This document shows positions 1 through 35,676 of a stretch of DNA of 64,000 nt, in pieces. The stretch comes from Pyrinomonadaceae bacterium. GTDB taxonomy: Bacteria > Acidobacteriota > Blastocatellia > Pyrinomonadales > Pyrinomonadaceae. Position 1 is the first letter of the stretch, and every line of letters starts with the position of its first letter. The DNA lies in the NCBI GenBank assembly GCA_030841105.1, contig JAVEDE010000012.1, positions 7,079-71,078 of the forward strand, written 5' to 3'. The notes under the pieces are model-generated. The model made no database searches, was not told the origin of the DNA, and saw only the letters and a program-made list of their open reading frames with translations. The position numbers and the translations under genes are program-made.

Positions 1-2
1 AA

Positions 3-87
3 CGAGTGACAAGTGACAAGATGGAAGACAAGTTTAAGAAAAGGTTTCTGCTTTAACTTGTCACTCGTCACCTGTCACCTGTCACTG
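3..87. repeat. Heptad-repeat inverted arms (TGACAAG-type left arm 3-20, CTYGTCA x4 right arm 57-87)
   Basis: Left arm is gagtgac aagtgac aag. Right arm is cttgtca ctcgtca cctgtca cctgtca ctg. The arms are complementary. The left arm is probably truncated by the window edge. Confidence 0.85.
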
Positions 88-100
88 CTTTAGAGAGGTA

Positions 101-1384
101 ATGACGATGAATCGAAGGTTCTTTTTGAAGTCGGGGGGCATCGCGTTGGCGAGCGTCGGGTTGGTGGGCGCGTCGCCGTCGTTTTTGCAGCGCGTGGCGG
201 CGGCGCAGGGGTTGCAGGCGGGCAGCAGCGGCGGGCGTCGCAAAACTCTGATCGCGATCTTTCAGCGCGGCGCGGTGGACGGCCTCAACATGGTCGTGCC
301 GCACGGCGAGAAAAATTATTACGCGCTGCGCCCCTCCATCGCTGTCGCGCAGCCGGGCAAAGGCGCGGCGGGCGAGTCGGCCGTAGACCTCGACGGCTTC
401 TTCGGCCTGCATCCCGCGCTCGCAGGGTTCAAGCCGATGTGGGACGCGAAGCGACTCGCCATCGTCCATGCCGCCGGGTCGCCCGACAACACGCGCTCGC
501 ACTTCGACGCGCAGGACTACATGGAGGCGGGCACGCCCGGCGTCAAGTCCACGCCCGACGGCTGGCTCAATCGTTACTTGCAGGCGCGCCTTGATCCCAA
601 AGCCTCGCCGTTTCGCGGCGTCTCGATGACGCAGAACTTGCCGCGCGTGATGCAGGGTCGCGCGCCCGCGCTCGCCATCTCCAACCTCAACGACTTCTCG
701 ATCCGCGCCGGGCAATCTTCGCAGAGCGTGCAGGGCGGCTTCGAGGACATCTACGAGCAGGCGGCGGGCGACGCGCTTCAAGGCACGGGCAAGGAGACGT
801 TCGAGGCCATCGCCTTTTTGAAACAGGTCAACCCCGCGCAGTACAAACCGGAGAACGGCGCGCAATACCCGCGCACGCAGTTCGGCAACTCTCTGTTGCA
901 GATCGCCCAACTCGTCAAGGCGGGCGTCGGCCTCGAAGTCGCCTTCACGGACGTGGGCGGTTGGGACACGCACGTCAATGAAGGCGGCGCGCGCGGCCAA
1001 CTCGCGTTGCGATTGACTGAATTCGGCAACGGCATCAACGCGCTCTACACAGACCTCGGCGCGCGCCGGATGGACGACGTAGTGATCCTCACGATGTCGG
1101 AGTTCGGCCGCACCGTGCGTGAGAACGGCAACCGCGGCACAGATCACGGCCACGCCAACGCCATGTTCATCATCGGCGGCGCGACGCGCGGCGGCAAAGT
1201 TTACGGCCAGTGGCCGGGACTCGACACAGACAAACTCTACGACGGGCGCGACCTCGCCCTGACGACCGACTTCCGCGACGTGTTCGGCGAAGTCGCGCAG
1301 AAACATCTGGGCAACGCCGACCTCAAAAAAGTCTTCCCCGGTTATGCCACGAGCGCGGCGAAGTTTCGCGGCGTGCTCGGCTAA
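101..1384 (+). CDS. DUF1501 domain-containing protein (sulfatase-like, Tat signal)
   Basis: 427-aa ORF with a twin-arginine signal (MNRRFFLKSGGIALASVGL). Conserved blocks are HFDAQDYME, GGWDTH and SEFGRTVRENGNRGTDHGH. A GAGAGG RBS lies at 93-98. Confidence 0.85.
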   Translation: MTMNRRFFLKSGGIALASVGLVGASPSFLQRVAAAQGLQAGSSGGRRKTLIAIFQRGAVDGLNMVVPHGEKNYYALRPSIAVAQPGKGAAGESAVDLDGFFGLHPALAGFKPMWDAKRLAIVHAAGSPDNTRSHFDAQDYMEAGTPGVKSTPDGWLNRYLQARLDPKASPFRGVSMTQNLPRVMQGRAPALAISNLNDFSIRAGQSSQSVQGGFEDIYEQAAGDALQGTGKETFEAIAFLKQVNPAQYKPENGAQYPRTQFGNSLLQIAQLVKAGVGLEVAFTDVGGWDTHVNEGGARGQLALRLTEFGNGINALYTDLGARRMDDVVILTMSEFGRTVRENGNRGTDHGHANAMFIIGGATRGGKVYGQWPGLDTDKLYDGRDLALTTDFRDVFGEVAQKHLGNADLKKVFPGYATSAAKFRGVLG

Positions 1385-1457
1385 ACAATAGCCGCGAAGC
1401 GGCGGCCGGTAGTAGCTCCGCGCGTCAGGGCGGGAATCAAGTTAAGTTCAAAAGTTT

Positions 1458-1516
1458 GAAGCCCCGTCAGGGTGACACAAGCACGCGTTGCATTGTGTCG
1501 CCCCTGACGGGGCTTC
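1458..1516 (+). terminator. Long hairpin downstream of the DUF1501 gene
   Basis: gaagccccgtcagggtgacacaa ... ttgtgtcgcccctgacggggcttc is a near-perfect ~23-bp stem, followed by gttatta. Confidence 0.5.
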
Positions 1517-1732
1517 GTTATTATCTTTGCGCCTGATCCACGCGCTTAAGCATGGGGCTATTAACTGTCCTCTCTTCGGGGCTACTATCGGTCGCCCCCT
1601 GCGGATACTCTGTGTCGCCGCGGCGAGTTCTTAATATCTCTCGCTTCAAGTTGCCAACGCCGTTTCGACGCAGAAATGGGCAACAAGGGCGAAACGGGCG
1701 GCAAGGGGGAAACATGCGCGACGCTCGTCGTT

Positions 1733-4700
1733 TCAACGGAGCGGCCAGCCGCCGTGCGCTTCAATCGCGGCGTCAATCCCGGACATCAGGCGCATGGTTT
1801 CGGCGAGCGCGGCGAGCAGCCGTTGATAGTGCGCGAGGTCTTCGTAAGCGAGCGCGCGCCCCTTGCGATCCTTGAGCCACTTGTGCGCGACCTGATAGCC
1901 GCCGACGTGGAAGTCCCAGACCTCCTGCGGGACGTTCGCGAAATATTGTTCGTGGTTGATCCAGACGCGCCCCACGCCCTCGCCGCCCTCGCCGTCTGCG
2001 GTGTAACGCAAAGCCTCGACGACGTTCGTGCCGCTCGCGGGAAACGAGGCGAGGTCGGGGGCGCGTTCTTCCAGCAGGTGCAGGCGGACGAGGCGCGCGC
2101 CGTGCGCGCACAGGCGACGGAAGAGTTCGGGCTGCGAGGTGAGCGGAAGACGTGGGAAGTCCGTCTTCAAAAACTCGCCGTAGCGTTCGCGGTAGGCGGG
2201 CGAGTGGAAGACTGCGTACATGTAGGCGAACACGTCTTCGGGGGCGAAGGTGCGCGCTAGGGGGTCGCCCGCGCCGCCGGGGACGAAAGAGAGGCCGAGT
2301 CGCTGCTCTAACTCTGCGACGAACTGCGGCGCGAGGTTCGGGCGACGCCCGCCGGGCGCGTCGCTTGATTCCGCGAAATCAAACAGAGTGGATTTCTTAG
2401 CTTCGTCGTAAAGGTAGAGCGGGAAGAGATAGTTGACTTCTTTCAACGAGACGGTGTGATGTTGGATGAGTTGCGAGGTGCAAAAGACGTGCTCCCAGCC
2501 GCGCCCGATCTCAATCGAGCGCGTGGTGCTGAGACCGAGATTCGCCCCGGCCAGCATGTGACGCATAACTTCCGGGCGCGGCCAATCAACCATCGTCTGC
2601 GTGTAATAAATCCAGCGTTCGTCGAACGGCCGGTAGAGAATTTTCTTCAAGTGCGCTTCGTGATGCTTGTCTGAGGCGATGGCTTTGCGCGCGTCGGGCA
2701 GCTTCCATCCGCGCGAATCTCCGGCTGCGTATTTGGCCGCTCCTTTCCCCGTAAAGTATTTGGCGCGGATGGTCTCGTCGGCGGTGTCGAGGTTGCCGAA
2801 GTCGGCGATGCGTCCGAGCAAAGCGTCGGCTTCGATGTCGGTGACGAAGCCGTCGCGCGCGGTGATGATCCCTGCGGAGTTGACGGGGAAGATGTCCGGC
2901 ACGCGCCAGCCCTGTTCGTACTCGTCGGCATGACCTGACAGCCGCGGCGTGAATAAGTAGAAAGGCGACTGCGGCTGAAACTCGACCCACGGCGTCGTGC
3001 TCAGTTCGTGTTGCCAGAGCCAGTTGTATTTTCCGCCCGTGAGCGTGCGTGCGCCGTCAGCGTTCTCTTCGTAGACTTCACGCGCGCCCCACAGGTGTGC
3101 GTGGCGCATGATGGCGGGCTGCTGGTTCAACTTCTTCTTCGCCGACGCGCGCTTGACGAAGATGCCGATGGCGACGCCCTGCTGGATGGCGAAGACGTTC
3201 TCGTCCTTCGAGCCGTCGGGCGCGCGTTCTTTCTTCTTGCTGTTGCCGTGCAGATCGAGCACGTAGATGTCGTCAAACGTCTCCATCAAACTCCGGCGCA
3301 TCCCGCGAAACGTCGGGTTGTCGAGATAGCCGTGATTGGTAATGAAGGCGAGCACGCCGTAGCCCGTCTCTTCGATGCGCGTTTGCGCGAAGCGTATGAA
3401 CTTAACGTAGTCGTCTTGCAGCCAGTGCTTGCGCTCGCTGAGCGGTTGGCCGTCAACGGTCTTGTAAGCGTCAACCAGTTTAGCCATCCCTTCCGACATG
3501 TTTGCGGAGAGACCGGAATAGGGCGGGTTGCCGAGGATGACCATGACGGGCGCTTCCTGCTTGACGCGGCTCGCGGCGTTGGCTTCCTCGGCCAGCCATT
3601 GCGTGAAGAGCGGCAGGCGGCCGACCTCGTGCCCCTCCGCGAGCGTGTTCGTCAGGTAGACGCGCAGTCGTTCGTCCGTGTTGAACTCGTAGCCCGTCTC
3701 AGCCAGTTGCAGCCCCAGCTTCATGTGCGCCACCGCGTAGGGAGCCATCAGCAACTCGAACCCGCAGAGGCGCGGCAACAGGTGCTCCGAGACGTAGCTC
3801 GACCACATGCCGCGGTTGTTTTCAAATGACTCGTAGATGTGACTCACGACGCCGTGGAGAAACGTGCCCGTGCCCGTCGCCGGATCGAGGATCAAGACTT
3901 TGTGGACTTCGTCCGCGCGCCCGCCACCCGCCGCCTTGAACTTGATCTTGCTTGAGTCGGCCAGCCCGTCGCGCAGGCGGAAGTCGGTCTTCAAAATGTG
4001 ATCTACGCTGCGGACGATGTAAGAGACGACCGGCTCGGGCGTGTAGTAGACGCCGCGCGCTTCGCGCATCGCCGGATCGTAGGCGGCGAGGAAGGTTTCG
4101 TAGAAATGCACCACGGGGTCTTCGCGTCGCGTCGCGCGCCCGAAGTCGCGTAGGATGTCTGCGATCTTCGTGCGGTTCAAGACTTCCGCCAGATCGTCCA
4201 CCGCCCACGCGATGCGCGGGTCTAAGTCAATGCCCGCGATGTGGTCGAACAGCTTGCGTAGGAAGGGGTTTGTCTTCGGCAGGTCGTGCGCGGCGGCGCG
4301 GCGTGTGAAGGGCGCGTCCCCGCGCGCGTTGCAGCGCGCCGCGAAGAGGCCGTAGCAGATGGTCTGCGCGTACATGTCCGCGAACTGCTCCCCGGTGAGA
4401 TCGTGTATGAGCACGTCGCGGAAGCCTTTGAGTTGATTGTGCAGCGGGTCGGGCGTGTCGCCGTTTGTATCTTCGTCGCCGAGCGCGCGCTCGATGGTGT
4501 CGCGGATGAGTCGCGCAACGGCGGCCATGCGCTCGGCCAACTCTTTCGCGCTGTTAACCGTCTCCACACGCGCGTTGAGGAACGCCGACAGCAGTTGCGT
4601 GACGTGCGCCTCGCCTTCGGGTTCGACCCGCAACTTGCCGTTCGCGCCGACGCGCGCGAGCCGCGCCGTCTGCCGCAACTCGTCGCGCACGTACCAGCGA

Positions 4701-5011
4701 AATTCCAGATAGTCCGTCAGGATCAGGTTGCCGAGACTCTCGCGGTAGCGTCTCATCTGCTCGCTCTTCTGTTCGCGTTCGAGCGAGACGCCCACGTCTT
4801 TGGCTTCGATGTAACCGAGCGGCGTCTGCCCGCGCGTGACGATGTAGTCGGGCGCGCCGCACCGCTGCCGCTTCGGCTCGTTGGTCGCCATTACTTTGTC
4901 GTCCAGCGATTCGACGAGAGACTTGAGCGCGGGGCGGTAGGTGTGTTCGGTGGCGTTGCCCGCGAGCAACGCCTGTTCAATCGCTGCGAGATAAGACGAA
5001 ATGGGAGGCAT
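1733..5011 (-). CDS. Type IIG-like restriction-modification enzyme (N-terminal PD-(D/E)xK-like nuclease, N6-adenine methyltransferase, C-terminal specificity region)
   Basis: 1092-aa ORF. N-terminal GAPDYIV..GYIEAKD is nuclease-like. LDPATGTGTFL is SAM motif I. GNPPYSG is the NPPY catalytic motif. The long C-terminal region resembles the type ISP/IIG target-recognition part. Confidence 0.75.
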   Translation of the reverse strand: MPPISSYLAAIEQALLAGNATEHTYRPALKSLVESLDDKVMATNEPKRQRCGAPDYIVTRGQTPLGYIEAKDVGVSLEREQKSEQMRRYRESLGNLILTDYLEFRWYVRDELRQTARLARVGANGKLRVEPEGEAHVTQLLSAFLNARVETVNSAKELAERMAAVARLIRDTIERALGDEDTNGDTPDPLHNQLKGFRDVLIHDLTGEQFADMYAQTICYGLFAARCNARGDAPFTRRAAAHDLPKTNPFLRKLFDHIAGIDLDPRIAWAVDDLAEVLNRTKIADILRDFGRATRREDPVVHFYETFLAAYDPAMREARGVYYTPEPVVSYIVRSVDHILKTDFRLRDGLADSSKIKFKAAGGGRADEVHKVLILDPATGTGTFLHGVVSHIYESFENNRGMWSSYVSEHLLPRLCGFELLMAPYAVAHMKLGLQLAETGYEFNTDERLRVYLTNTLAEGHEVGRLPLFTQWLAEEANAASRVKQEAPVMVILGNPPYSGLSANMSEGMAKLVDAYKTVDGQPLSERKHWLQDDYVKFIRFAQTRIEETGYGVLAFITNHGYLDNPTFRGMRRSLMETFDDIYVLDLHGNSKKKERAPDGSKDENVFAIQQGVAIGIFVKRASAKKKLNQQPAIMRHAHLWGAREVYEENADGARTLTGGKYNWLWQHELSTTPWVEFQPQSPFYLFTPRLSGHADEYEQGWRVPDIFPVNSAGIITARDGFVTDIEADALLGRIADFGNLDTADETIRAKYFTGKGAAKYAAGDSRGWKLPDARKAIASDKHHEAHLKKILYRPFDERWIYYTQTMVDWPRPEVMRHMLAGANLGLSTTRSIEIGRGWEHVFCTSQLIQHHTVSLKEVNYLFPLYLYDEAKKSTLFDFAESSDAPGGRRPNLAPQFVAELEQRLGLSFVPGGAGDPLARTFAPEDVFAYMYAVFHSPAYRERYGEFLKTDFPRLPLTSQPELFRRLCAHGARLVRLHLLEERAPDLASFPASGTNVVEALRYTADGEGGEGVGRVWINHEQYFANVPQEVWDFHVGGYQVAHKWLKDRKGRALAYEDLAHYQRLLAALAETMRLMSGIDAAIEAHGGWPLR

Positions 5012-5151
5012 GTTCTGCTCGTTAATCAGTCTGCGCGAAATCGTGACGGCTGATGTCGGGTTGCGTGGAGAGTATAAACCACGCGCGGGCGTAAGCGCGC
5101 GTTGGTCGTCCGTCAGTCTCGCGCGCTAGTCGTCCCTCAGGGTCGCGCTGG

Positions 5152-6012
5152 TTGTCCGTCAATCTCCGCTCGCATAAGATGAGTTTCAGACTGACGCGAG
5201 ACGAGTTTGCGATTGACGCCAGACGAGTTTGCGACCGACGCGTGGCCGACCTGTTCCAACCGACGATCCTGCGCTACGACGCGCTGCCTTCGACCAACAC
5301 GGAGGCGGCGGGACAGGCCGCGCGCGGCGCGCCCGAAGGCTTGTGCGTCGTGGCGCGCGAGCAGACGCGCGGGCGCGGGCGGCAGGAGCGCGTGTGGGCG
5401 TCGCCGCCCGATGCGGGACTCTATTTCAGCATCGTCCTGCGCCCGCGCCTGAAGCTCGAAGCGTGGCCGCTCCTGACGCTCGCCGCCGCCCTCGCCGTGC
5501 GCGACGCGCTCGCGGAGGCGTGCCGACTTGAGACGGACATCAAGTGGCCGAACGACATCCTCGCCGGGGGGCAGAAACTCTGCGGCATACTTGCCGAGAC
5601 CGTCGAGACCGCGACGGGGCGCGCGTGCGTCCTCGGCATCGGCATCAACTTGAGCGAGCGCGCCTACCCGGAAGAGTTGCGCGAGCGCGCCACGTCGGTC
5701 GAAGCCGCGACGGGCGCGCCGGTTGATCTCGAAGACGTGCTCGCCGCGCTCGTCCGCTGTCTCGCGCGCCGCTACGCGCAACTCCACGCGCCTGCGGGCG
5801 AGGCGTCCGTCGTGCTCGATTGGTCGGCCAACTCCACTTACGCCGAGGGCAAGCGCGTGCGCGTCCACGCCGCGACGGAAGTTTTCGACGGCACGACGCG
5901 CGGCCTTGAGCCGGACGGCGCGTTGCGGGTTCAGACAGCGACGGGCGACTTCAAGATCGTGCGCGCGGGCGACGTGCATGCGCTGCGCGCGGAAACGATG
6001 AACGATCAATGA
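5152..6012 (+). CDS. birA: Biotin--[acetyl-CoA-carboxylase] ligase
   Basis: Motifs GRGRQERVW, KWPNDIL and KLCGILAE. There is no N-terminal HTH, so this is a class I BirA. An alternative start is the ATG at 5179. Confidence 0.85.
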   Translation: MSVNLRSHKMSFRLTRDEFAIDARRVCDRRVADLFQPTILRYDALPSTNTEAAGQAARGAPEGLCVVAREQTRGRGRQERVWASPPDAGLYFSIVLRPRLKLEAWPLLTLAAALAVRDALAEACRLETDIKWPNDILAGGQKLCGILAETVETATGRACVLGIGINLSERAYPEELRERATSVEAATGAPVDLEDVLAALVRCLARRYAQLHAPAGEASVVLDWSANSTYAEGKRVRVHAATEVFDGTTRGLEPDGALRVQTATGDFKIVRAGDVHALRAETMNDQ

Positions 6013-6101
6013 TGAGCGATGAGGTGGGAATGTTGAACGATGAATGATGAAGTGGGAATGTTGAAGGACGAGTGATGAAGTAGGAATGTTGAACGATGAA
6101 T
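5989..6101. repeat. GATGA-type heptad array running into three tandem 28-bp (4 x 7) units
   Basis: acgatga acgatca atgatga gcgatga is followed by three 28-bp units at 6018-6045, 6046-6073 and 6074-6101 (gatgaRgtRggaatgttgaaS...). The array spans the birA stop (6010-6012) and the next ORF's ATG (6096). Confidence 0.9.
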
Positions 6102-7472
6102 GAACAACAAAGTGCGTCTGCCGCTTCCTCGTGCGCCGTGCCCACCTCGTCGTTTGTCTCAAGGCGCATCGTCCTGTCAACCTTCGGTTCGTTCGGCGAC
6201 ATTCATCCTTACGTCGCGCTCGCATTGGAGTTGAAGGCGCGCGGCCACCGGCCGGTCATCGCCACGTCGGAGATTTACCGTGAGAAGACCGACGCGCTCG
6301 GCCTCGAACTCCATCCGGTGCGCCCGGTCGTGCCGTCTTACGACGAGCCGGATGTGATCGCTCCCCTGATCGAAAAGATGATGGACGCGCGCACGGGGAC
6401 GGAGGAGGTGTTCAAAACTTTCATCATCCCGCACCTGCGCGACACCTACGACGACCTGCTCGCGGCGGTGCGCGGAGCAGACTTGTTCGTGACGCACCCG
6501 CTCACCATTCCGGGGCCGTCGGTGGCCGAACGCACGGGCGTCCGTTGGGTGTCGAGCGTGCTCGCGCCCGGCTCGATGCTCTCGATTTACGACCCTCCCG
6601 TGCCGCCGCAATTCCCCCCGCTTCACCGCGTGATGATGCTCCACCCCGCCGTCGGGCGCGCGTTGATGAGCCTCGGCAAATGGAAGTGGGGCGCGATGTG
6701 GAAGGCGCTCAACCGGCTGCGCGCGGACGTAGGTCTCGCGCCGTCGAACGCGCACCCGCTCTTCGAGGGACAGCACTCGCCGACGCTCGTCCTCGCGCTC
6801 TTCTCGCGCGTGCTGGCCGACCCGCAGCCCGACTGGCCGCCCCGCACGCTCGTCACCGGCTTCCCCTTCTACGACCGGCGCGACCGCGCGGGCGACGACG
6901 TTGACACCGCCTCCGAAGGCAACAACCTCTCGCCCGCGCTCGCAGACTTTCTCGACGCGGGAGAGCCGCCCGTCATCTTCACACTCGGCTCGTCGGCCAT
7001 CTGGGTGGCGAAGGATTTTTACCGCGAGTCAATCGCCGCTGCCCGCGCGCTCGGCCGCCGCGCGCTCTTGCTCATCGGCCACGAACGCAACCGTCCGGCC
7101 GAGCCACTGCCCGCGGGCGTCGCCGCGTTCGAGTACGCGCCTTACGGCGAAGTGCTGCCGCGCGCGTGCGTCGTCGTGCATCAGGGCGGCGTCGGCACGA
7201 CGGGGCAGGCGTTGCGTGCCGGACGCCCCGCGCTCGTCGTCCCTTTCAGCCACGATCAGTTCGACAACGGCGCGCGCGTCGCGCGTCTGGGGTGCGGGCG
7301 CATGCTCGCGCGCGGGCGATACAACGCCGCGAGCGCGACGCGCGAGTTGCGTGCTATCTTGGACAACGAAACTTATCACATGGCCGCGACGGAAATCGGC
7401 CGCCGCGTGCAGGCCGAAGACGGCACGCGCGCCGCCTGCGACGCGATTGAAGAAGTGCTCGGCCGCGCATGA
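6096..7472 (+). CDS. Glycosyltransferase family 1 (UDP-glycosyltransferase/MGT-like)
   Basis: N-terminal STFGSFGDIHPYVALALELKARGH. C-terminal nucleotide-sugar signature HQGGVGTTGQALRAGRPALVVPFSHDQFDNG. Confidence 0.8.
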   Translation: MNEQQSASAASSCAVPTSSFVSRRIVLSTFGSFGDIHPYVALALELKARGHRPVIATSEIYREKTDALGLELHPVRPVVPSYDEPDVIAPLIEKMMDARTGTEEVFKTFIIPHLRDTYDDLLAAVRGADLFVTHPLTIPGPSVAERTGVRWVSSVLAPGSMLSIYDPPVPPQFPPLHRVMMLHPAVGRALMSLGKWKWGAMWKALNRLRADVGLAPSNAHPLFEGQHSPTLVLALFSRVLADPQPDWPPRTLVTGFPFYDRRDRAGDDVDTASEGNNLSPALADFLDAGEPPVIFTLGSSAIWVAKDFYRESIAAARALGRRALLLIGHERNRPAEPLPAGVAAFEYAPYGEVLPRACVVVHQGGVGTTGQALRAGRPALVVPFSHDQFDNGARVARLGCGRMLARGRYNAASATRELRAILDNETYHMAATEIGRRVQAEDGTRAACDAIEEVLGRA

Positions 7473-7524
7473 TGAAAGGTGCTCGGCCGCGCATGATGCG
7501 ACGTGCCCGGCCGCGCTTGACGCG
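7453..7524. repeat. Three tandem 24-bp units duplicating the 3' end (with stop codon) of the glycosyltransferase gene
   Basis: aagtgctcggccgcgcatgatgaa / aggtgctcggccgcgcatgatgcg / acgtgcccggccgcgcttgacgcg. Each unit keeps an in-frame TGA. Confidence 0.85.
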
Positions 7525-7550
7525 AGGCGCGCGACGGGTGACGCAGGGTG

Positions 7551-7650
7551 TGAGTGACGAATGACGCAGCGCATGCGATGAACAACGCGGGACGGGCGTG
7601 ACGAATGATGCGGCGCGTGCGACGAATGACGCCCGGCGCGCGGACGGGCT
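7551..7650. repeat. Two ~46-bp direct repeats (gtgacgaatgaYgcRgcgcRtgcga...)
   Basis: Both copies were read directly from the intergenic sequence between the GT1 and GNAT genes. Confidence 0.7.
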
Positions 7651-7691
7651 AATATCTCCCGTCCGGCAAAGGCCGCGAAGGTTGGTGCGCG

Positions 7692-8264
7692 ATGGAACAG
7701 ACGCCTTTCACCACGCTCGAATCCGCGCGACTCGTCCTGCGTCGTTTGTGCGACGCAGACCTCACGCCGCTCGTCGCCTATCTCAACGATCCGCTCGTGG
7801 CGCGTTATCAAACGTGGGAGTCGTACACGGAAGAGGGCGCGCGCGAGTTGATCGAAGGGCAGCAGCATCTCACGCCCGGCGTGCCGGGACGCTGGTTCAA
7901 CTTCGCGCTTGAAGTGAGAGAGACGGGCGCGCTCGCCGGACACGTCGCGCTGTGCGTGCGCGCTGACGACGCGCGACAGGCGGAGATCGGCTTCACGCTC
8001 GCGCGCCCGTTTCAAGGCAAAGGTCTGGCTGCCGAGGCCGCGCGCCGCGTGCTCGCTTACGCGTTCGGAGAACTCCGGCTGCACCGCGTCGTGGCGATCA
8101 CGGACACTGAAAACGCGAGTTCCATCGCGCTCCTCGAACGACTGGGGATGCGTCGGGAAGGGCACTTCATCCAGAACATCCGGTTCAAAGGAAAGTGGGG
8201 CGACGAGTATCAATACGCGATCTTGCGCGATGAATGGACGCGACAGCAGCAGCATGACGAGTGA
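7692..8264 (+). CDS. GNAT family N-acetyltransferase (RimJ/RimL-like)
   Basis: 190 aa with the acetyl-CoA binding block FQGKGLAAEAARRVLAYAF and a typical C-terminal YAILRDEW. Confidence 0.85.
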   Translation: MEQTPFTTLESARLVLRRLCDADLTPLVAYLNDPLVARYQTWESYTEEGARELIEGQQHLTPGVPGRWFNFALEVRETGALAGHVALCVRADDARQAEIGFTLARPFQGKGLAAEAARRVLAYAFGELRLHRVVAITDTENASSIALLERLGMRREGHFIQNIRFKGKWGDEYQYAILRDEWTRQQQHDE

Positions 8265-8311
8265 CGCCCTCCGCGTCGGTCAACAAGCCGGGCGGTTCAT
8301 CTCGACACTTA

Positions 8312-8362
8312 TTACTTGTCACTTGATTGCTTGTCACTCGTCACTTGTCACTCGTCACTTTT
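8312..8362. repeat. CTYGTCA heptad array immediately upstream of coaX
   Basis: cttgtca cttgatt gcttgtca ctcgtca cttgtca ctcgtca ctttta. The array ends ~10 nt before the ATG at 8369. Confidence 0.9.
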
Positions 8363-8368
8363 AACAAC

Positions 8369-9151
8369 ATGCTTCTAGTCATTGATGTCGGAAACACCAA
8401 CACTTCGCTCGGCGTCTACGACGGCGAGCGGCTCGTCACGCACTGGCGTCTGACGACCGAGCGCGGGCGCACGGTGGACGAGTACGGCGTGCTCGCGCGC
8501 AACTTGTTCGCGCTGGCGGGGCTGGACTTCAAGGCCATCAACGCGGTCGCCGCCGCTTCGGTCGTGCCGCAGTTGAACTTCACGGTCAAGCGCATGGCCG
8601 AGGAATACTTTCACCTCTCGCCGCTCTTCATAGATCACACCACGCACACAGGGATGGAGATACTCTACCGGCCGCCCTCGGACGTGGGCGCGGATCGCAT
8701 CGTGGACGCCGTGGCCGCGCGCCACAAGTACGGCGCGCCGGTCATCGTCGTGGACTTCGGCACGGCGACCACGTTCAACGCCGTCAACGCGGCCGGACAG
8801 TATCTCGGCGGCGTCATCACGCCCGGCATCCAAATCTCTTCGGACGCACTCTTCGCGCGCGCCGCGCGCCTGCCGCGCGTCGAGATCAAACGACCGCAGG
8901 CCGTCATCGGCGCGACGACGAACGACGCGATCCAGTCGGGTCTCTATTACGGCTACGTCGGCCTCGTGGACGGCATCCTCCGGCGCATGCGCGAGGAACT
9001 CGGCGGCGACGTGCGCGTGGTCGCCACGGGCGGTCTCGCCCCGCTCATCGCCACCGGCTCCGAACTCATCGAAACCGTTGACGACACGCTCACGCTCGAA
9101 GGGCTGAGATTGATCTACGAAGGAACGAAGGAAGTGACGAGTGACAAGTGA
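8369..9151 (+). CDS. coaX: Type III pantothenate kinase
   Basis: MLLVIDVGNTNT start, plus the DFGTATTF and VATGGLA motifs. The ORF track starts at 8327, but those 14 codons are encoded by the heptad array. Confidence 0.9.
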   Translation: MLLVIDVGNTNTSLGVYDGERLVTHWRLTTERGRTVDEYGVLARNLFALAGLDFKAINAVAAASVVPQLNFTVKRMAEEYFHLSPLFIDHTTHTGMEILYRPPSDVGADRIVDAVAARHKYGAPVIVVDFGTATTFNAVNAAGQYLGGVITPGIQISSDALFARAARLPRVEIKRPQAVIGATTNDAIQSGLYYGYVGLVDGILRRMREELGGDVRVVATGGLAPLIATGSELIETVDDTLTLEGLRLIYEGTKEVTSDK

Positions 9152-9293
9152 CAAGAGAAGAAAGTCAATCGTGAATCGTCAATCGTGAAGAGAGAAGACC
9201 TGCTTTCTACTATTCACGATTGACGATTTACGATTCACTGCTCTATCTCGTCACTTGTCACTCGTCACTTGTCACTCGTCACTCGTCACTTGT
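9131..9293. repeat. Nested heptad-repeat double hairpin (outer TGACRAG/CTYGTCA arms, inner GTSAATC arms)
   Basis: Outer left arm 9131-9155, inner left 9164-9190, inner right 9212-9238, outer right 9247-9293. All arms have period 7 and are mutually complementary. Confidence 0.9.
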
Positions 9294-9297
9294 TCGC

Positions 9298-10077
9298 ATG
9301 AACTACTTTAATTACTTTACCGAGATCGAAGACGCCTTCAGTCGTCGCAGGGGCAAGCACCTGTTCGTGAGTCCGCTGGACTGGTCTTTGATGGAGACGT
9401 GGAAGGACAGGGGCATTCCTTTGCACATCGTCTTGCGGGGCATCGAGCAGTCGTTCGATTCCTACGAGTCGAAGCCGAGACGGCGTAGTGTGAAGTCGCT
9501 CTTTTACTGTCAGGAAGAGGTCGAGGCGCAGTATGCAGAGTGGCTGGAATCGCGTCTGGGCGCGACCGACGTTGTTACTAACACGACTGACGCGGACTCG
9601 ACGGGAGAGATTGCGGCGAAAGATAAACGCGCCGCTACGGCGGCGACGGGCAACGGCGCGCTGCCGTTCCCGCGCGAAGTGATCGCGGGGCATCTGGCGG
9701 AGGCGCGCGCGCGTTTGGAGCGCGCCCGCGTCGAGCAGGAGTCGCGCGGTGGCGGCGCGGGCGAGTTGTGCGAAGCGCTCACACGCGCCGCCGCGCGGCT
9801 GTCCGAGTTGGAAAAAGATTTCGCGGCGGCTGCGCGCCCGGACGCCGAACAACTCGAAGGCTCGCTCGGCGATCTGGAAAACCTTCTGGATCGCGCCGTG
9901 CGCGCAGACCTGTCGCCCGCTCGACTCGAAGCGCGACGCGCCGAAGCCGCCGCACAACTCGAACCCTATCGCAAGCGCATGGAGCGCGCCGCCTACGAGC
10001 AGACGCTCGACAGCCTGCTCGCCAAACTCCTGCGCGAAGAGTGCGGCCTGCCCCGGCTCAGTTTGTTCTACCTTTGA
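9298..10077 (+). CDS. Conserved hypothetical protein
   Basis: High GC3 ORF. The ATG at 9298 (MNYFNYFTEIEDAF...) follows the heptad array. The C-terminal half is Ala/Arg/Glu-rich and helical. I recognise no family. Confidence 0.6.
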   Translation: MNYFNYFTEIEDAFSRRRGKHLFVSPLDWSLMETWKDRGIPLHIVLRGIEQSFDSYESKPRRRSVKSLFYCQEEVEAQYAEWLESRLGATDVVTNTTDADSTGEIAAKDKRAATAATGNGALPFPREVIAGHLAEARARLERARVEQESRGGGAGELCEALTRAAARLSELEKDFAAAARPDAEQLEGSLGDLENLLDRAVRADLSPARLEARRAEAAAQLEPYRKRMERAAYEQTLDSLLAKLLREECGLPRLSLFYL

Positions 10078-10169
10078 GCGGGGATAAATCTCTGGGCGCA
10101 ACAATGAATCTCTGAGCGCAGCGATAAACTTCTGCGCCGCACAATTAACTCCGAACGAACTCCTGGCAC

Positions 10170-11582
10170 GTGATGAAGAAACAACACCGCAGGCCGCGCC
10201 GCGAGTCGCCGCCCACAACAACAGCCGAAGGGAAGTTGAGCGCGGGCGCTCCGGTCGAAGTCGAGATCGAGCGCATCGTGCCGGGCGGCGCGGGGCTTGG
10301 GCACGCCGACGGCTACACGCTCTTCGTTCAACTTGCCGCGCCCGGCGACCGCGTGCGTGCGCGCGTCGAACGCGTGCGCGGTAAAGTTGCTTTCGCGTCG
10401 GTTGTTGAAGTCATCACGCCGTCGCCCGCGCGCGTCGAACCACCCTGCCCCTACTTCGGACGCTGCGGCGGCTGCGACTTCCAGCAGTTGACCTACGAGG
10501 CGCAACTCGCGGCCAAGGTCGAGATCATACGCGACTGCCTGCGCCGCATCGCGCGCGTCGAACCGCCCGCCGACATCCCAATCACGCCCTCGCCCGCCGT
10601 CTGGCGCTACCGCTCACGCGCGCGCTGGCAGCACGACCCCGTGCGGCAGTTCCTCGGCTACTACGAACTCGCCTCGCACCGCGTCTGCGACGTGACGGAA
10701 TGCCCCGTCGTCCTCCCCGAAGTGCAGGACAAACTCTCGCACCTGCGCGCGACGCTCGCCGCGGGCGGCGACTTTGACGAGACGGAAGAGTTTCAGGCCG
10801 TGGCGGGCGACGACGGCGTCTCGCTCCTCCCGCCGCTTGAGACAGACGACGCGCGCGAACGCTTCCGCGACCTCGCGGGCGAGCGTTATCACTTCGACGC
10901 CGACTGCTTCTTCCAGATCAACCATGCCCTCCTCGAACCGCTCCTCGCCGAAGCCCTCAAGGGCACGGCGGCCGAACCGGACACAACAAGCGAACCAGAC
11001 ACAACGGGCGAGTCGAACACAAAGGGTGAGTCAGACATGACGGGCGAGTCGGGCGAGTCAGTCATGACGGGCGAGTTGGGTGAGACTGGCGCGACGGGCG
11101 GCGAGTCGAACGCGACGGGCGAGACGGCCGTTGACCTCTACTGCGGCGTCGGCCTCTTCACCCTTCCGCTCGCGCGCCGCTTCGCACGCGTCGCCGCCGT
11201 CGAAGGCAACGCGGCGGCCACCGGGTTCGCCCGACGCAACCTCGCCGCCGCCGGACTCACTAACGCCTCCGTCCACACCGCGCGCGTCGGCGAATGGCTC
11301 GCCGCCCACGCGCCAAGTCTCCCGCCCGTTGACTTCCTCCTCCTCGACCCGCCCCGCGCGGGCGCAGAACCCGAAGCCCTCGCGGGCATACTCCTCCTCC
11401 GCCCGCGCCGCATCGCCTACGTCTCCTGCGACCCCGCCACCCTCGCGCGCGACCTCCGCACCCTCTTCGACGCGGGCTACACCCTCGATTCCATCCACGC
11501 CTTCGACATGTTCCCCCAGACACACCACGTCGAAACGGTCGTCCATCTCACGGCGTCGGCTATTACAAACAGAAGTCAGTGA
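10170..11582 (+). CDS. 23S rRNA (uracil-5-)-methyltransferase RlmD/RumA family, with a low-complexity insertion
   Basis: TRAM-like N-terminus and Fe-S cysteines CPYFGRCGGCDFQQL. SAM motifs DLYCGVGLF and LDPPRAG. Catalytic YVSCDPATLARD. Confidence 0.85.
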   Translation: MMKKQHRRPRRESPPTTTAEGKLSAGAPVEVEIERIVPGGAGLGHADGYTLFVQLAAPGDRVRARVERVRGKVAFASVVEVITPSPARVEPPCPYFGRCGGCDFQQLTYEAQLAAKVEIIRDCLRRIARVEPPADIPITPSPAVWRYRSRARWQHDPVRQFLGYYELASHRVCDVTECPVVLPEVQDKLSHLRATLAAGGDFDETEEFQAVAGDDGVSLLPPLETDDARERFRDLAGERYHFDADCFFQINHALLEPLLAEALKGTAAEPDTTSEPDTTGESNTKGESDMTGESGESVMTGELGETGATGGESNATGETAVDLYCGVGLFTLPLARRFARVAAVEGNAAATGFARRNLAAAGLTNASVHTARVGEWLAAHAPSLPPVDFLLLDPPRAGAEPEALAGILLLRPRRIAYVSCDPATLARDLRTLFDAGYTLDSIHAFDMFPQTHHVETVVHLTASAITNRSQ

Positions 11583-17913: not shown

Positions 17914-18034
17914 CAAAGGGGAAAGGGGAAAGGTAAAAGGGGAAAGGTAAAAGGTAAAAGGCGAGAATATAGAACCGCGTGGCTGACACGCGCTCGTCAC
18001 CTTTCCCCCTTACCCTTTACCCCTTCCCCTTTCG
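17914..18034. repeat. AAAGGNN heptad hairpin downstream of comEC
   Basis: Left arm is aaagggg aaagggg aaaggta aaagggg aaaggta aaaggta aaaggcg (17915-17963). The complementary right arm is cctttcc cccttac cctttac cccttcc cctttcg (18000-18034). Confidence 0.9.
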
Positions 18035-19204: not shown

Positions 19205-21910
19205 TCAGCCCTCGTCGCGCAGTTGGTCGTCCCAGTGTGTGATGGTTTCGTAGGCGCGTCCCGTGATCGGGCGCGGGCGCGCGCCGTCGGCTTGGCCGAT
19301 GTAGCCCTCGCGCTCCATCGCGTCGAGGATGGCGGCGGCGCGGCCGTAGCCGATGCGCAGGCGTCGTTGGAGGACGGAAGTGGAAGCGCGCTTCATCTCC
19401 ACGCAAATGCGCAGGGCTTGCTCGAACAGTTCGTCGCGCTCGCCGCCCGCGCCATTCCCGCCGCCCGACTCTTCCTCCGATTGCGTGATCGTCTCATCGT
19501 AGAGCGGTTCGCCCTGCCCCTTGATGTGCGAGACGATGCGGCCGACTTCCGACTCGTCCAGATACGCGCCGTGGACGCGGATGAGCCGCGACGTTCCGGG
19601 CGGGAGGAACAGCATGTCGCCGCGCCCCAAGAGTTGCTCCGCGCCGTTGGCGTCAATGATCGTGCGCGAGTCAACTTTGGACGACGTGCGCAGGGCGATG
19701 CGCGAAGGGAAGTTGGCTTTGATGAGTCCGGTGATCACGTCAACGCTGGGTCGTTGCGTGGCGAGGACGAGATGGATGCCGACGGCGCGCGCCATCTGCG
19801 CGAGACGCGTGATGGCCTCTTCCACGTCGTGCCCGGCGGTCATCATCAGGTCTGCGAGTTCGTCCACGATGATGACGATGTAGGGCAGCGTCTTCCAAGG
19901 CTGCCCGTCGTCGTCGAAGTCTTCGACCATGTTGCGGCGCATGACTTCAACGTTGAAACCGTCAATGTTGCGCACGCCCCACTTGGCGAGTTCCTTGTAG
20001 CGCGCCTCCATCTGCGCGACCGCCCACTTCAAGGCGTTCGCGGCGCGCTTCGGGTCGGTGATGATCGGCGTCGCCAGATGCGGGATGTCTGCGTAGAGGC
20101 CGAGTTCGAGACGCTTCGGATCGATCATGATGAATTTGACTTCATCCGGGCGCGCCTTGTAGAGGATCGAGACGACGAGCGAGTTCAGACAGACGGACTT
20201 GCCCGTCCCCGTAGCTCCCGCGATCAAGAGGTGCGGCATGCGCGCGAGATCGGCGACGTAGTTTAAGCCGTCAATCGTCTTGCCGAGAGCGAGCGTTAGT
20301 TTGGAGTTCGATTCTTTGAAGTGGCGCGATTCGATCACCTCGCGGAGCATGATGTTGTCGCGCTGGTGATTGGGCACTTCGATGCCGACGTGCGCCTTGC
20401 CGGGCACGCGGTCAATGCGTATGGACTCGGCCTTCAAGGCGAGGCAGAGGTCGTCAACCAGTCCGGTGACGCGCGAATACTTGACGCCGGGGTCGGGTTT
20501 GAATTCGTAGGTCGTGACGACGGGGCCGGGGCAGATGTATTCGATCTTGCCCGTCACATTGAACTCCTTGCACTTCTCGGCGACGCGCGTGGCGAGATTG
20601 CGGAGTTCCTCGTCGGCCTGCTCGTGGCGCGGCGGCGGCGAGTTCAGGTAATCAAGGCTCGGCATGTTGTAACCGCTCATCGCCTCTGCATACTTCTCGG
20701 CGCGGCGGGCTTCGCGCGCGGCCTTGTCTTCCTTTTGCACGACCGGAGCGACTTCCTCTTCCGTGATCTCCGTGCGCACGACTTCGACGGAGGCGACCAT
20801 CCCCGCCAACTCTTCGTCGTCTTCTTCGACGAAGGCGTCCGGCGAGAAGTTCTTGCTGCTGCTAGTCTTCGCAGTCGTCTTGCGGACTGACGCGCCGCCG
20901 TTCGGCTGTGCGTTCGACTGCTGCGCGGAGGCATCGCCCGACACGAGCGCGCTGCCCAAACCGGCAAACTCCTCGAAGGCTTCGTCCAGATCGTCCTGCA
21001 TCGTCGTCGGCTGCGTCGCGCCCGCTTCGGCCGCGGCGTTGGCGGAGCGTTGGATGGCGACGTTGGCCGACGTGGCCTGCTGTGTGGTAGTCGTCGTGAC
21101 GTTGGAAGTCGCGGGCGCGTCCGTGTCGCGCATGAACTCGGCGACGCGTTCGGCGGCGGTCTTCTTCTCGCGCAGACGCTTCTCTTCAGCGGCGGCCTCT
21201 TCGTGGGCGGCGCGCGCGGCGCGTCTCTGTTCGGCGCGGCGGGCGGCCAACTCGCGCCGCTCCGTGCGCCACGACTGGAAGCGCGTCGAGAGCGACGAGA
21301 GGAAGGTTGAAGGATGACCGAAGGCGTCAACGGCGCGTTCGTAGGCGCGCGCGAAGGAGAAGTTGGTGGCGAGCAGCAGCCCGGTGGCGGCGAGCGCGAG
21401 CAGCAGCACGAGTGCGCCGACTCTGTTCAACGCGCCCGCGAGGTTGCCCCCGACGAACGCACCGATGAAACCGCCCGCGCGCACGCTCTGGTCAAAGAGT
21501 AGCGGCAGGTTGACGATGGCGAGAATGGCCGAAGTCGAAACCAGGAGCAGAACGAGTCCACCGACGAGTGAGACGGGCGCGTGGATGCGCCGCGTGCGAA
21601 AGCGATACCCCGCTGCTATGAAGAGCAGCAGCGGCAACAGGTACGAGGAGAGGCCGACCGATTGCAGCATGAAGGCGGCGACGTATGCGCCGACGGGGCC
21701 GACGAGGTTGCGCGTCTCCTCCTGCCCGGCGGAGTTCCAAGACGGATCGTTCGGGTTGAAGAAGACGAGGCAGAGCGTGAGCATCAGGCCGAGCGCGAAG
21801 AGCGCGATGGCGACGATCTCGTTGCGCCGCGAGTTGCGCTGCGGCGATTGCAGCGGCAGTGGCTGCGTCCGCGTATCCGTCTGTGTTGTTGCCATAGCTT
21901 TTAGTTTCAA
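19205..21910 (-). CDS. ftsK: DNA translocase FtsK
   Basis: N-terminal TM helices and a low-complexity linker. Walker A GATGTGKS and LATQRPSVDVITG. C-terminal gamma winged helix (SVLQRRLRIGYGRAAAILDAME). Confidence 0.95.
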   Translation of the reverse strand: MKLKAMATTQTDTRTQPLPLQSPQRNSRRNEIVAIALFALGLMLTLCLVFFNPNDPSWNSAGQEETRNLVGPVGAYVAAFMLQSVGLSSYLLPLLLFIAAGYRFRTRRIHAPVSLVGGLVLLLVSTSAILAIVNLPLLFDQSVRAGGFIGAFVGGNLAGALNRVGALVLLLALAATGLLLATNFSFARAYERAVDAFGHPSTFLSSLSTRFQSWRTERRELAARRAEQRRAARAAHEEAAAEEKRLREKKTAAERVAEFMRDTDAPATSNVTTTTTQQATSANVAIQRSANAAAEAGATQPTTMQDDLDEAFEEFAGLGSALVSGDASAQQSNAQPNGGASVRKTTAKTSSSKNFSPDAFVEEDDEELAGMVASVEVVRTEITEEEVAPVVQKEDKAAREARRAEKYAEAMSGYNMPSLDYLNSPPPRHEQADEELRNLATRVAEKCKEFNVTGKIEYICPGPVVTTYEFKPDPGVKYSRVTGLVDDLCLALKAESIRIDRVPGKAHVGIEVPNHQRDNIMLREVIESRHFKESNSKLTLALGKTIDGLNYVADLARMPHLLIAGATGTGKSVCLNSLVVSILYKARPDEVKFIMIDPKRLELGLYADIPHLATPIITDPKRAANALKWAVAQMEARYKELAKWGVRNIDGFNVEVMRRNMVEDFDDDGQPWKTLPYIVIIVDELADLMMTAGHDVEEAITRLAQMARAVGIHLVLATQRPSVDVITGLIKANFPSRIALRTSSKVDSRTIIDANGAEQLLGRGDMLFLPPGTSRLIRVHGAYLDESEVGRIVSHIKGQGEPLYDETITQSEEESGGGNGAGGERDELFEQALRICVEMKRASTSVLQRRLRIGYGRAAAILDAMEREGYIGQADGARPRPITGRAYETITHWDDQLRDEG

Positions 21911-21985
21911 GTTACAGGTTTCGAGTTTCAGGACTGACGGGTTTTTCGTTCTTCAACTTCAAACCTGCAATCCGAAACTCGGAAC
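21902..21985. repeat. Imperfect heptad inverted repeat (AGTTTCA / GAAAC-type) between the prfB stop and the ftsK start
   Basis: agtttca agttaca ggtttcg agtttca ... cttcaac ttcaaac ctgcaat ccgaaac tcggaac. cgagtttcagg pairs with ccgaaactcg. Confidence 0.7.
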
Positions 21986-21997
21986 TCTCCGTCCCGT

Positions 21998-23129: not shown

Positions 23130-23152
23130 AGTGACAGGTGACAAGTGACGAG
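23130..23152. repeat. CTYGTCA heptad array in the prfB leader (sense orientation on the minus strand)
   Basis: The minus strand reads ctcgtca cttgtca cctgtca ctg, followed by attttggaggtttaATG. Confidence 0.85.
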
Positions 23153-23206
23153 TTAATAACCAGCAAGTCGTGAATGGATCAATACAAGGTTTTCTCTATT
23201 TACCCT

Positions 23207-25728: not shown

Positions 25729-26142
25729 TCACGCGACGGCTTCAACTTCCAGCCAATGCCCGCGCGCGCCCACGACGCGCACCCGCCCGCCGCGCGCGAT
25801 TCTAACACCACTCCGCGAACGCGCGCGCCACAATTCGCCGTCCACCAGCACCGCCCCCTCCGGCTCCAAAGCCTCCGCCACGACGCCGACCCGCCCCTCG
25901 ACATGAAGCGGCCTCCCCGCGCTTTTCTGATGACGCGACATCGCCGCCACCACCAACGCGATCAAGCACACGACGAGCAAAAGCGCGCCGACTAGTAAAA
26001 GGACGAAAGCAGGCGGATGAAGGAAACTGAAAAGGGCTGAGGAATGAGTGGTAAGGGATAAGACAAAGGACTGAGAGCAGAGGGATGAGGGATGAATGAA
26101 AGCACTCAAGAGATTGAGGGCTTCACTTAATTCATCCTTCAT
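25729..26142 (-). CDS. NfeD family protein (membrane anchor plus C-terminal OB-fold)
   Basis: TM segment FVLLLVGALLLVVCLIALVVAA. C-terminal GRVGVVAEALEPEGAVLVDGELWRARS...VRVVGARGHWLEVE. The first ~35 codons lie in the heptad-repeat region. Confidence 0.7.
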   Translation of the reverse strand: MKDELSEALNLLSAFIHPSSLCSQSFVLSLTTHSSALFSFLHPPAFVLLLVGALLLVVCLIALVVAAMSRHQKSAGRPLHVEGRVGVVAEALEPEGAVLVDGELWRARSRSGVRIARGGRVRVVGARGHWLEVEAVA

Positions 26143-26165
26143 CCCTCCGCCCCCATCCCTTCAAC
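26081..26165. repeat. GGGATGA / TCATCCC-type heptad inverted repeat across the TPR-gene stop and the nfeD start
   Basis: agggatg agggatg aatgaa ... attcatc cttcatc cctccgc ccccatc ccttcaa. Confidence 0.8.

Positions 26166-35600: not shown

Positions 35601-35676
<76 letters not shown>

Follow-up and report, generated by a model that had tools for sequence, protein, structure and literature searches.

This analysis concerns tandem heptanucleotide arrays in a 64,000-nt stretch of DNA from a Pyrinomonadaceae bacterium (Acidobacteriota; GenBank assembly GCA_030841105.1, contig JAVEDE010000012.1), hereafter called the window. Four arrays of the unit GTCACYY precede the start codons of a DUF1501 gene (PF07394, Pfam), of coaX (PF03309, type III pantothenate kinase), of a hypothetical gene, and of prfB, which was identified as RF-2 by Pfam. 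A preliminary description of the window had reported these arrays as (CTYGTCA)n, always on the coding strand, with complementary TGACRAG arms upstream of two of them. Direct reading confirmed all four in strand and position, and the pattern GTCACYYGTCACYYGTCAC, allowing ≤2 mismatches, generated 14 matches versus 0.02 expected from 100 shuffles. The complementary arms were both found, at 3-20 and 9131-9155. While the heptamer arrays are real, GTCACYY is preferable to CTYGTCA as the notation for the unit because CCTGTCA makes up half of the units at the 57-87 and prfB sites. The preliminary description also did not extend to the other repeats: GTCACYY is only one among about ten heptamer families in the window.

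The sequence between array and start codon is of two kinds. The DUF1501 and prfB leaders have a Shine-Dalgarno sequence there. The gap between the 57-87 array and ATG 101 of the DUF1501 gene is 13 nt and contains the Shine-Dalgarno-like GAGAGG. The prfB array lies 15 nt upstream of ATG 23114 with GGAGG in between, and lnt is the upstream neighbor gene. No Shine-Dalgarno sequence is present between array and start at coaX or the hypothetical gene. The end of the coaX array is 10 nt upstream of ATG 8369. By direct reading it has five good units at 8312-8358, the others being degenerate, and the gene upstream of coaX encodes a GNAT acetyltransferase (Pfam). In the array preceding the hypothetical gene, the final GTCAC ends at 9289 and ~3 units are unpaired before ATG 9298. 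Folding of 9120-9310 predicted a nested ~140-nt hairpin with a free energy of -95.5 kcal/mol (z = -11), and 1-110 folded with -35.4 kcal/mol (z = -3). The coaX leader was weakly paired and the prfB array was unpaired (z = +0.6). Thus the earlier suggestion of a leader that alternates between a hairpin and an open form stands insofar as 9120-9310 and 1-110 are hairpin-capable. A complete version of the 3-20 arm is present in the orthologous spacer of a relative, L119 (loci from other genomes are given L numbers). TTG codons in CTTGTCA units (8327 and 9220) create spurious upstream starts, for example those of open reading frames 8327..9151 and 9220..10077, and automatic gene callers may extend N-termini too far through CTTGTCA arrays.

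Table 1. Heptamer arrays and hairpin arms in the window, with the four GTCACYY arrays and their partners first.
Feature	Position	Strand	Remarks
Purine-rich 5' arm of the DUF1800-DUF1501 spacer hairpin	3-20	+	GAGTGAC AAGTGAC AAG; truncated by window edge
Pyrimidine-rich 3' arm	57-87	+	4 GTCACYY units, CTTGTCA CTCGTCA CCTGTCA CCTGTCA CTG; pairs with 3-20
Two-unit GTGACRR remnant, TGACGAGTGACG	8255-8266	+	Includes GNAT acetyltransferase stop TGA 8262-8264
GTCACYY array, largely unpaired	8306-8362	+	Tandem Repeats Finder (TRF) 8306-8360, 7.7 copies, 5 exact
Outer purine-rich 5' arm, (AAGTGAC)3.4	9131-9155	+	Third unit supplies coaX stop TGA 9149-9151
Inner 5' arm of nested hairpin, (AATCGTG)3.3	9167-9189	+	
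Inner 3' arm of nested hairpin, (CACGATT)3.9	9212-9238	+	
Outer pyrimidine-rich 3' arm, 6.3 GTCACYY units	9247-9293	+	Precedes hypothetical gene, ATG 9298
Solitary GTCACYY array, 3.4 units, without partner arm	23130-23153	-	Upstream of prfB
28-nt (4 x 7) purine-rich array, GATGAAT/GGGAATG...	5994-6103	+	Overlaps biotin-ligase stop TGA 6010-6012; reaches next gene
Hairpin, (AAAGGGG/AAAGGTA)n versus (CCCCTTT/TACCTTT)n	17915-18032		Begins 2 nt past ComEC stop; arms 17915-17961 and 17999-18032
Hairpin, (AGTTTCA)n versus (TGAAACY)-like	21903-21986		prfB-ftsK spacer, minus-strand genes
Hairpin, (GAGGGAT/GAATGAA) versus (TTCATCC/ATCCCTC)	26066-26161		Convergent genes; complement arm from 26127
Nested hairpin, outer (GATGAAN)n..(TTCATCG), inner (GTCAGTT/GTCCGCC)n..(AACTGAC/GGCGGAC)n	39393-39551		Arms 39393-39458 and 39497-39551

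Species-representative genomes were scanned for three exact GTCACYY units, which generated at least 118 loci. About 35 of these are from Pyrinomonadaceae, Blastocatellia or other Acidobacteriota, and among the matches listed the remaining loci include Chloroflexota, heterocystous cyanobacteria, and others. The 35 acidobacterial loci, comprising 354 kb, were examined with TRF, and non-redundant arrays outside core coding sequence were counted. The census yielded 102 arrays with a period of 7, 37 with a period of 14, and 8 with a period of 21, while any other period was represented by ≤12. Period-7n arrays that are not GTCAC-type numbered 121. Most arrays are members of complementary pairs, which form stems of 25-60 bp across the whole spacer with loops of 15-40 nt. 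The 54 array clusters that were folded had minimum free energies of -16 to -161 kcal/mol.

The complementary pairs have a polarity. GTGAC units were followed by GTCAC units in 46 pairs in 37 loci, and the reverse order was found in 0. Complementary pairs composed of other units were purine-first in 25 cases, pyrimidine-first in 2, and neutral in 10. The 5' arms of these other pairs had more G than C in 34 pairs and more C than G in 2, with A versus T at 19 to 13. GC skew is the most consistent form of the polarity rule. The clearest exception to polarity is L132 (7845-8007), where (CTTTGTG)n is followed by (CAAAGTA)n. Its 5' arm has more G than C though it is T-rich, which points to GC skew rather than purine content as the basis of the rule. 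The polarity was the same in tandem (31), convergent (8) and divergent (9) gene contexts, and no obvious preference for a context was seen. A palindrome with a purine arm, a loop and a pyrimidine arm is identical on both strands, and for this reason GTCACYY occurs in sense before starts on either strand. In the 31 tandem contexts the sense and antisense RNA folds were equally stable (12 versus 19, p = 0.40), so that selection on the transcribed strand is not indicated. Strand selection at the RNA level, through G-U versus A-C mismatches, was rejected on the same comparison.

Arrays adjacent to a stop codon are purine-rich in the sense of the ending gene, 27 versus 4 for non-GTCAC arrays and 22 versus 6 for GTCAC-type arrays. 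Within the window, repeat units contain the stop codons of the GNAT gene, coaX, the biotin-ligase gene, and the gene ending at 39395. The array encodes the 9 C-terminal residues of CoaX, which for this reason differ from those of relatives. The preliminary description had argued that the position and strand of the arrays relative to start codons were too consistent for random slippage, and the larger sample bears this out: among the 35 acidobacterial loci, 24/25 GTCAC-type arrays within 40 nt of a start are pyrimidine-sense, with a median gap of 9 nt. What it did not include is that GTGACRR arrays are equally often in sense on stop codons (22/28). In the relatives, with starts assigned heuristically, the junction between array and start is often G(C/T)TTTT-ATG, and mostly no Shine-Dalgarno-like sequence is found there. 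Solitary arrays follow the same rule. Those of the pyrimidine type are near starts (coaX, prfB, L085) and those of the purine type are on stops (L019, L049, L052, L069).

One explanation of these contacts is that the pyrimidine arrays are translation-initiation or post-transcriptional elements, in which G-poor unstructured units replace the Shine-Dalgarno sequence before the AUG. The 30S subunit would land or stand by on the units via S1, or the units would form a phased array for an OB-fold chaperone (cold-shock protein), and the upstream arm would mask them until the upstream cistron is translated. The 24/25 sense arrays at starts are consistent with such a role, as are the distances, 14/24 arrays ending ≤11 nt before the ATG, and the usual U-rich G(C/T)TTTT spacer that lacks a Shine-Dalgarno-like sequence. 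At least 3 units are predicted to be unpaired before the start at 9247-9293, 8306-8362 and 23130-23153. Upstream stops inside the 5' arm also fit, since a terminating ribosome would melt the base of the stem beside the downstream AUG. Start codons are avoided in the 3' arms, where ATG or GTG occurred in 1/37 versus 6.0 ± 1.9 by within-unit permutation (P = 0.005), a depletion that exceeds the effect of composition. Published analogues are the TAACTGA repeats (PMC4679880) and the heptamers of Nostoc recF and recO. Several observations oppose such a role. The polarity is the same in convergent spacers, which adjoin no start codon, and the sense and antisense folds do not differ in stability (12 versus 19, p = 0.40). 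At DUF1501 and prfB, two of the four loci in the window, a normal Shine-Dalgarno sequence is retained between array and start. Unit sequences vary widely between loci, which makes a sequence-specific binder unlikely. Finally, the arrays are not kept at orthologous leaders of essential genes, as described below. We consider this explanation unlikely.

Orthologous spacers were compared in relatives. A look-up by exact sequence gave no match to the window CoaX, so homologues were used. It has 95% identity to a protein from a Pyrinomonadaceae metagenome-assembled genome and 79% to the CoaX of Pyrinomonas methylaliphatogenes. The 95% relative is represented by L119 and L120, independent assemblies that are 99.98% identical and whose arrays are identical. 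In the DUF1800-DUF1501 spacer of L119/L120 a similar hairpin is found, with units that are changed yet complementary (GTGACAG..CCTGTCAC), and in the 84% relative L122 the hairpin is built from another heptamer (AGCGATC..GCTGATC). The spacer between coaX and the hypothetical gene is 146 nt in the window and holds the nested GTGAC/AATCGTG hairpin. It is 72 nt in L119, with (GTTTCAG)n..(CCTGAAA)n, 27 nt in L122, with a short array, and 26 nt in P. methylaliphatogenes, with no array. The coaX leader of L119 (9872-10012) contains four copies of a 22-nt unit, GAGGATRAAGNNGTCGTCATTTC, and that of L121 (60-200) contains one, while the CoaX protein is identical. This difference in copy number is direct evidence that the array recently expanded or contracted in situ. 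The single copy in L121 ends with ...GTCGTCACTTTATG, a plausible seed for the window coaX array. Array density differs strongly between relatives.

The prfB array was present in 0 of about 33 related (≥76% identical) prfB leaders, most of which have a short spacer with GGAGG, and some of which carry other palindromes. L125, L127, L130, L135 and L142 have a dispersed palindrome, GTCAGAAGCCCGACCGTNAGGGAGGGC...GCCCTCCCTAACGGTCGGGCTTCTGAC, in the lnt-prfB spacer ~60-130 nt upstream of prfB, and L144 has another long palindrome (TTTATTGTAGGGGCGGCACTCC...) in this spacer. The lnt-prfB spacer is a hot spot for palindromic insertion. The prfB gene itself has a programmed +1 frameshift site, GGGAGGTTTCTTTGATG, at 23026-23042 (minus strand), with an internal Shine-Dalgarno sequence and CTT TGA, and ORF0 ends at the TGA. 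This site is identical across all close relatives.

The preliminary description had suggested that the four arrays are a shared cis element, such as a binding array for a DNA/RNA-binding protein or a modulator of translation initiation, and that orthologous leaders be compared. The comparison did not support one sequence-specific element regulating the four genes: the arrays are not kept, being absent from the ~33 prfB leaders, and the coaX and hypothetical-gene leaders of relatives carry other repeats. In addition, unrelated heptamers obey the same rule, and the orientation is explained by hairpin polarity. Positions tend to persist while sequences and copy numbers do not, which argues against a gene-specific regulatory site. 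A generic effect on initiation, through a pyrimidine-rich leader that lacks a Shine-Dalgarno sequence, or the binding of a protein of low sequence specificity might still operate.

Alternatively, the hairpins might be copies of small non-autonomous mobile elements, of the kind of repetitive extragenic palindromes (REP), their paired forms (REPIN) or miniature inverted-repeat transposable elements, whose arms happen to be heptamer arrays. Gene conversion or a transposase that recognises hairpins would have dispersed them, and the window sites would then be four insertions of one family. The prfB array is restricted to the lineage of the window, and the hairpins are, like REP elements, abundant and strictly intergenic. 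There are also resemblances between unrelated loci. A nested composite with similar spacer segments occurs at four loci in four genomes with no similarity in the flanks, and the inner stem AAGTTAAAG..CTTTAACTT and the outer flanks AAAGCA|GTGAC...GTCAC|TGCTTT are conserved at unrelated loci. A single architecture is, however, common to many unrelated unit families, which points to one generating process rather than many mobile families. The length of the hairpins is not fixed, and near-identical strains differ in copy number at one locus. Single "seed" units occur at matching positions in relatives, for example TCGTCACTTTATG in the L121 coaX leader and TAAGTTTCAA past the cupin gene of the window, as fits expansion in situ. 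Neither target-site duplications nor a gene for a REP-associated or IS200-like transposase (RAYT/IS200-like) was noticed in the window, where no systematic search for them was made. Mobility as the source of the arrays seems to us doubtful, though worth keeping in mind.

Stems of 25-60 bp in a probable polycistronic RNA would be expected to be substrates of RNase III and obstacles to exonucleases. A scan of the whole window with Rfam gathering thresholds identified only a tRNA-Glu and no family at the arrays. At positions 1-10500, a sigma-70 promoter scan produced 0 matches versus 1.3 expected, and a terminator scan produced 15 versus 9.9 expected, none of them at the arrays. Together with the equal stability of sense and antisense folds, the occurrence in all three gene contexts and the scarcity of T tracts after the stems (below), these null scans fit DNA-level palindromes or generic RNA structures, not specialised terminators or riboregulators. 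A leaderless promoter, with TTGTCA as the -35 and GTCACT as the -10 hexamer, was rejected on inspection of the spacing, as position -11 lacks an A and the -35-like hexamer lies too near. An analogy with integron attC sites was rejected, their polarity being the reverse (RYYYAAC first) and the genes that flank the arrays here being syntenic housekeeping genes.

The strong stems, and the inner and outer segments that are A-rich on the 5' side and T-rich on the 3' side, raise the possibility that the hairpins are bidirectional intrinsic transcription terminators. Alternatively they could hide C-rich RNA from Rho, as the G-rich-first, C-rich-second order leaves no C-rich RNA unpaired. Solitary arrays, for their part, might be hypermutable repeats for tuning or phase variation. 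The strain-to-strain variation in copy number suits that role, and the heptamer hairpin in the 5' untranslated region of Haemophilus influenzae hmw, which is processed by RNase III, does control expression (PMC12721329). Only 5/56 complete stems are followed by a T tract (≥5 T in 10 nt). The 15-40-nt loops and the 25-60-bp stems are far beyond those of intrinsic terminators, and the terminator scan misses the hairpins. Hairpins also lie within conserved, probably co-transcribed gene pairs (DUF1800-DUF1501 and coaX-hypothetical gene) and between divergent genes. Intrinsic terminators were rejected on the stem, loop and T-tract counts. The linked genes also speak against a phase-variable contingency class: they are coaX, prfB, DUF1501 and the hypothetical gene, with no surface, virulence or restriction link, and the neighboring genes are housekeeping rather than contingency genes. 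Termination or tuning as the purpose of the arrays is very improbable.

The explanation that we favor, with some reserve, is that the arrays are heptamer hairpins resembling the short tandemly repeated repetitive (STRR) sequences of cyanobacteria, generated through slippage and copying within palindromes, with a filter for what translation tolerates. Arrays would arise and grow by 7-nt slippage together with copying between the arms of the palindrome, possibly with some dispersal of whole elements, and selection would remove all but the orientation that does translation no harm. At gene ends the retained units would be stop-rich and purine-rich, and at gene starts they would be units without start codons or Shine-Dalgarno-like sequence. 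The RNA stems are probably generic intercistronic structures that could affect processing or stability, or couple an upstream stop to a downstream start. The hairpins are probably not gene-specific regulatory sites.

Several results weigh against this explanation. A small vocabulary of heptamers recurs across genomes. The nested (AGTGACR)n(AATCGTR)n... composite is present at four non-orthologous loci (the window, L038, L115 and L041) with dissimilar flanks, unrelated GTCAC-type hairpins (and AGTTTCA-type ones too) have the common inner stem AAGTTAAAG..CTTTAACTT, and the G(C/T)TTTT-ATG junction recurs at unrelated GTCAC-type loci. Pure in-situ slippage does not predict a recurrent vocabulary, composite, inner stem or junction, which suggests dispersal or a sequence-specific constraint. 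The stop codons of the 5' arms, 29 observed versus 26.6 expected from base composition, are explained by composition, so that the case for a translation filter comes mostly from the depletion of ATG and GTG. On the same count, stops in all three frames were rejected as the force driving polarity. Genes of the relatives were called with a crude GC3-based caller (GC content at third codon positions) that reproduced the L119 annotation well while assigning start codons heuristically.

A more far-reaching view is that the hairpins form a "stop-to-start clamp", a lineage-wide post-transcriptional layer in which the purine arm holds the stop codon and the pyrimidine arm is the landing site that has no Shine-Dalgarno sequence. 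Downstream translation would depend on upstream termination, or S1 or Csp OB-fold chaperones, with a footprint of ~7 nt that equals the repeat period, would bind the pyrimidine units in register. We think this quite improbable. If it were true, the 7-nt period and the G-first, C-second polarity would be functional design and not by-products.

The scan described above selects for GTCACYY, and a second sample was picked via prfB, which makes it unbiased for repeats. In this sample heptamer enrichment is patchy; a few loci (e.g. L151) are rich and most are poor. The more distant Acidobacteria in the prfB-picked sample showed no heptamer enrichment, and the spacers of P. methylaliphatogenes are short and array-free. 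The heptamer arrays are a lineage-specific bloom in the Pyrinomonadaceae. In other phyla, matches with further heptamer arrays were seen in L010 (Oscillospiraceae), L047 (Verrucomicrobiae), L009 and L015 (Chloroflexota), and L028 and L039 (Bacteroidota). Complementary pairs occur there as well, AATTGAG/CTCAATT in L010 and TTGGATG/CATCCAA-like in L047. Heptamer blooms seem to have arisen independently in scattered lineages.

The heptamer arrays listed in Table 1 are the longest inverted repeats of the whole window, with 9 heptamer loci in about 56 kb and TRF copy numbers of 2.3-7.7 at period 7. The hairpin past ComEC is kept in L119 with altered units. The first unit of the nested hairpin at 39393-39551 holds the upstream stop codon (TGA 39393-39395), and L056 has the same composite. 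Spacer repeats with longer units (21, 22, 24 and 29 nt) were observed at 5096-5242, 7455-7632, 10090-10160, 41268-41349 and 47008-47150. Inverted sets occur among them (47052-47077 with 47124-47149). A relation to the heptamers is possible (21 = 3 x 7), or these repeats may be separate families.

The window has other features of note. A 7.6-kb low-GC region at 27998-35647 has 41-52% GC compared to 63% elsewhere and is bordered by perfect 51-nt direct repeats (27998-28048 and 35597-35647) that correspond to the 3' part of tRNA-Glu(ttc) at 35601-35676 (minus strand). This integrated defence island encodes a tyrosine integrase at 28127-29320 (PF00589) and a Pycsar effector, PycTM, at 33707-34363 on the minus strand (PF18967). 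Between the DUF1501 and biotin-ligase genes, at 1733-5011 on the minus strand, the window encodes a Type ISP restriction-modification enzyme (PF18135 + PF02384), an insertion relative to the closest relative L119. At the same place L122 has a split Type ISP system and a HicAB pair.

Heptamer repeats with which these arrays can be compared include the STRR sequences, reportedly described first in Calothrix and Anabaena. Hairpins of such 7-bp repeats lie between cyanobacterial hupS and hupL, where roles in transcript stability or translational coupling were proposed (PMC2670836). The arrays of this study share with them the 7-nt units, the many unit sequences per genome, the intergenic location, the hairpins between cistrons, and the same functional proposals, and the heterocystous cyanobacteria matched by the GTCACYY scan hold other heptamer arrays too. 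They differ in host, here a high-GC acidobacterium, and in that hairpin pairing is the rule and not the exception. The G-rich 5', C-rich 3' polarity and the contact with stops and starts are documented here, and no statement of such a polarity was found for STRR in the literature. As the host belongs to the Pyrinomonadaceae and is not a cyanobacterium, the arrays are STRR-like rather than strict STRR.

TAACTGA direct repeats are found in marine Beggiatoaceae, some Cyanobacteria and some Bacteroidetes (MacGregor 2015, PMC4679880). There, 147/170 sets face a start codon, mostly with no canonical ribosome-binding site, and a post-transcriptional or translational role was proposed (PMC4679880). 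Both repeats are forward direct heptamers a few nucleotides before the starts of unrelated genes, here in 24/25 cases with a median gap of 9 nt. The TAACTGA system has one dominant heptamer, with related ones rarely repeated, while about ten families are present here. Inverted pairs make up 1/170 of the TAACTGA sets, whereas most arrays here are the arm of a hairpin, with 46 GTGAC/GTCAC pairs in 37 loci. TAACTGA has two forward stop codons and GTCACYY has none.

The G-rich heptamers GGGAATC of Xanthomonas and GGGGAYT of Nostoc were studied as G-quadruplex (G4) formers (Rehm et al. 2015, PMC4692102). Like the arrays of the window they show an intergenic excess at period 7, lie nearer the end of the upstream ORF, and include some inverted pairs. 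Their length and sequence vary among close relatives while position is kept, and polymerase slippage was proposed as the origin of those repeats. They have no preference for ORF orientation, in contrast to the strongly polar arrays found here, which are mostly not G4-prone. Mrazek (2007), as cited in PMC4679880 and PMC4692102, is credited with the finding that heptamers are the most over-represented long simple sequence repeats in many bacteria. Heptamer repeats near recF and recO of Nostoc influence expression.

A worked example of how a leader array might act is hmw of H. influenzae, where the leader repeat (ATCTTTC)n pairs with a G-rich segment and the RNase III-processed hairpin controls expression and repeat dynamics (PMC12721329). 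Both are leader heptamers that can form a long hairpin. The hmw repeat differs in that it belongs to a single adhesin contingency locus, the pyrimidine repeat is the 5' arm, and it is phase-variable within populations. REP elements, including bacterial interspersed mosaic elements (BIME) and REPIN, are likewise abundant, strictly intergenic palindromes between a stop and the next start, and can also lie within operons. REP elements inside operons stabilise upstream mRNA. They consist of conserved 20-40-nt units linked to RAYT, not tandem heptamers, and neither a fixed unit nor a RAYT gene was noticed here.

The literature search found no paper linking heptamer repeats with Acidobacteria. The arrays extend a known kind of repeat to a new phylum, the Acidobacteriota, and no documentation of the polarity rule as clean as the present one was found in the literature. 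There are practical consequences, as the arrays mislead gene callers and alter the C-termini of proteins, and they are likely break points in metagenome assembly. Heptanucleotide repeats such as STRR, TAACTGA and GGGAATC have been known for decades from cyanobacteria and a few other groups, and are now found at high density in the Pyrinomonadaceae, abundant soil bacteria. In these organisms the pairing, the polarity, the donated stop codons and the rapid turnover provide testable alternatives for what the arrays are: slippage products under a translation filter, coupling or standby elements, or mobile palindromes.

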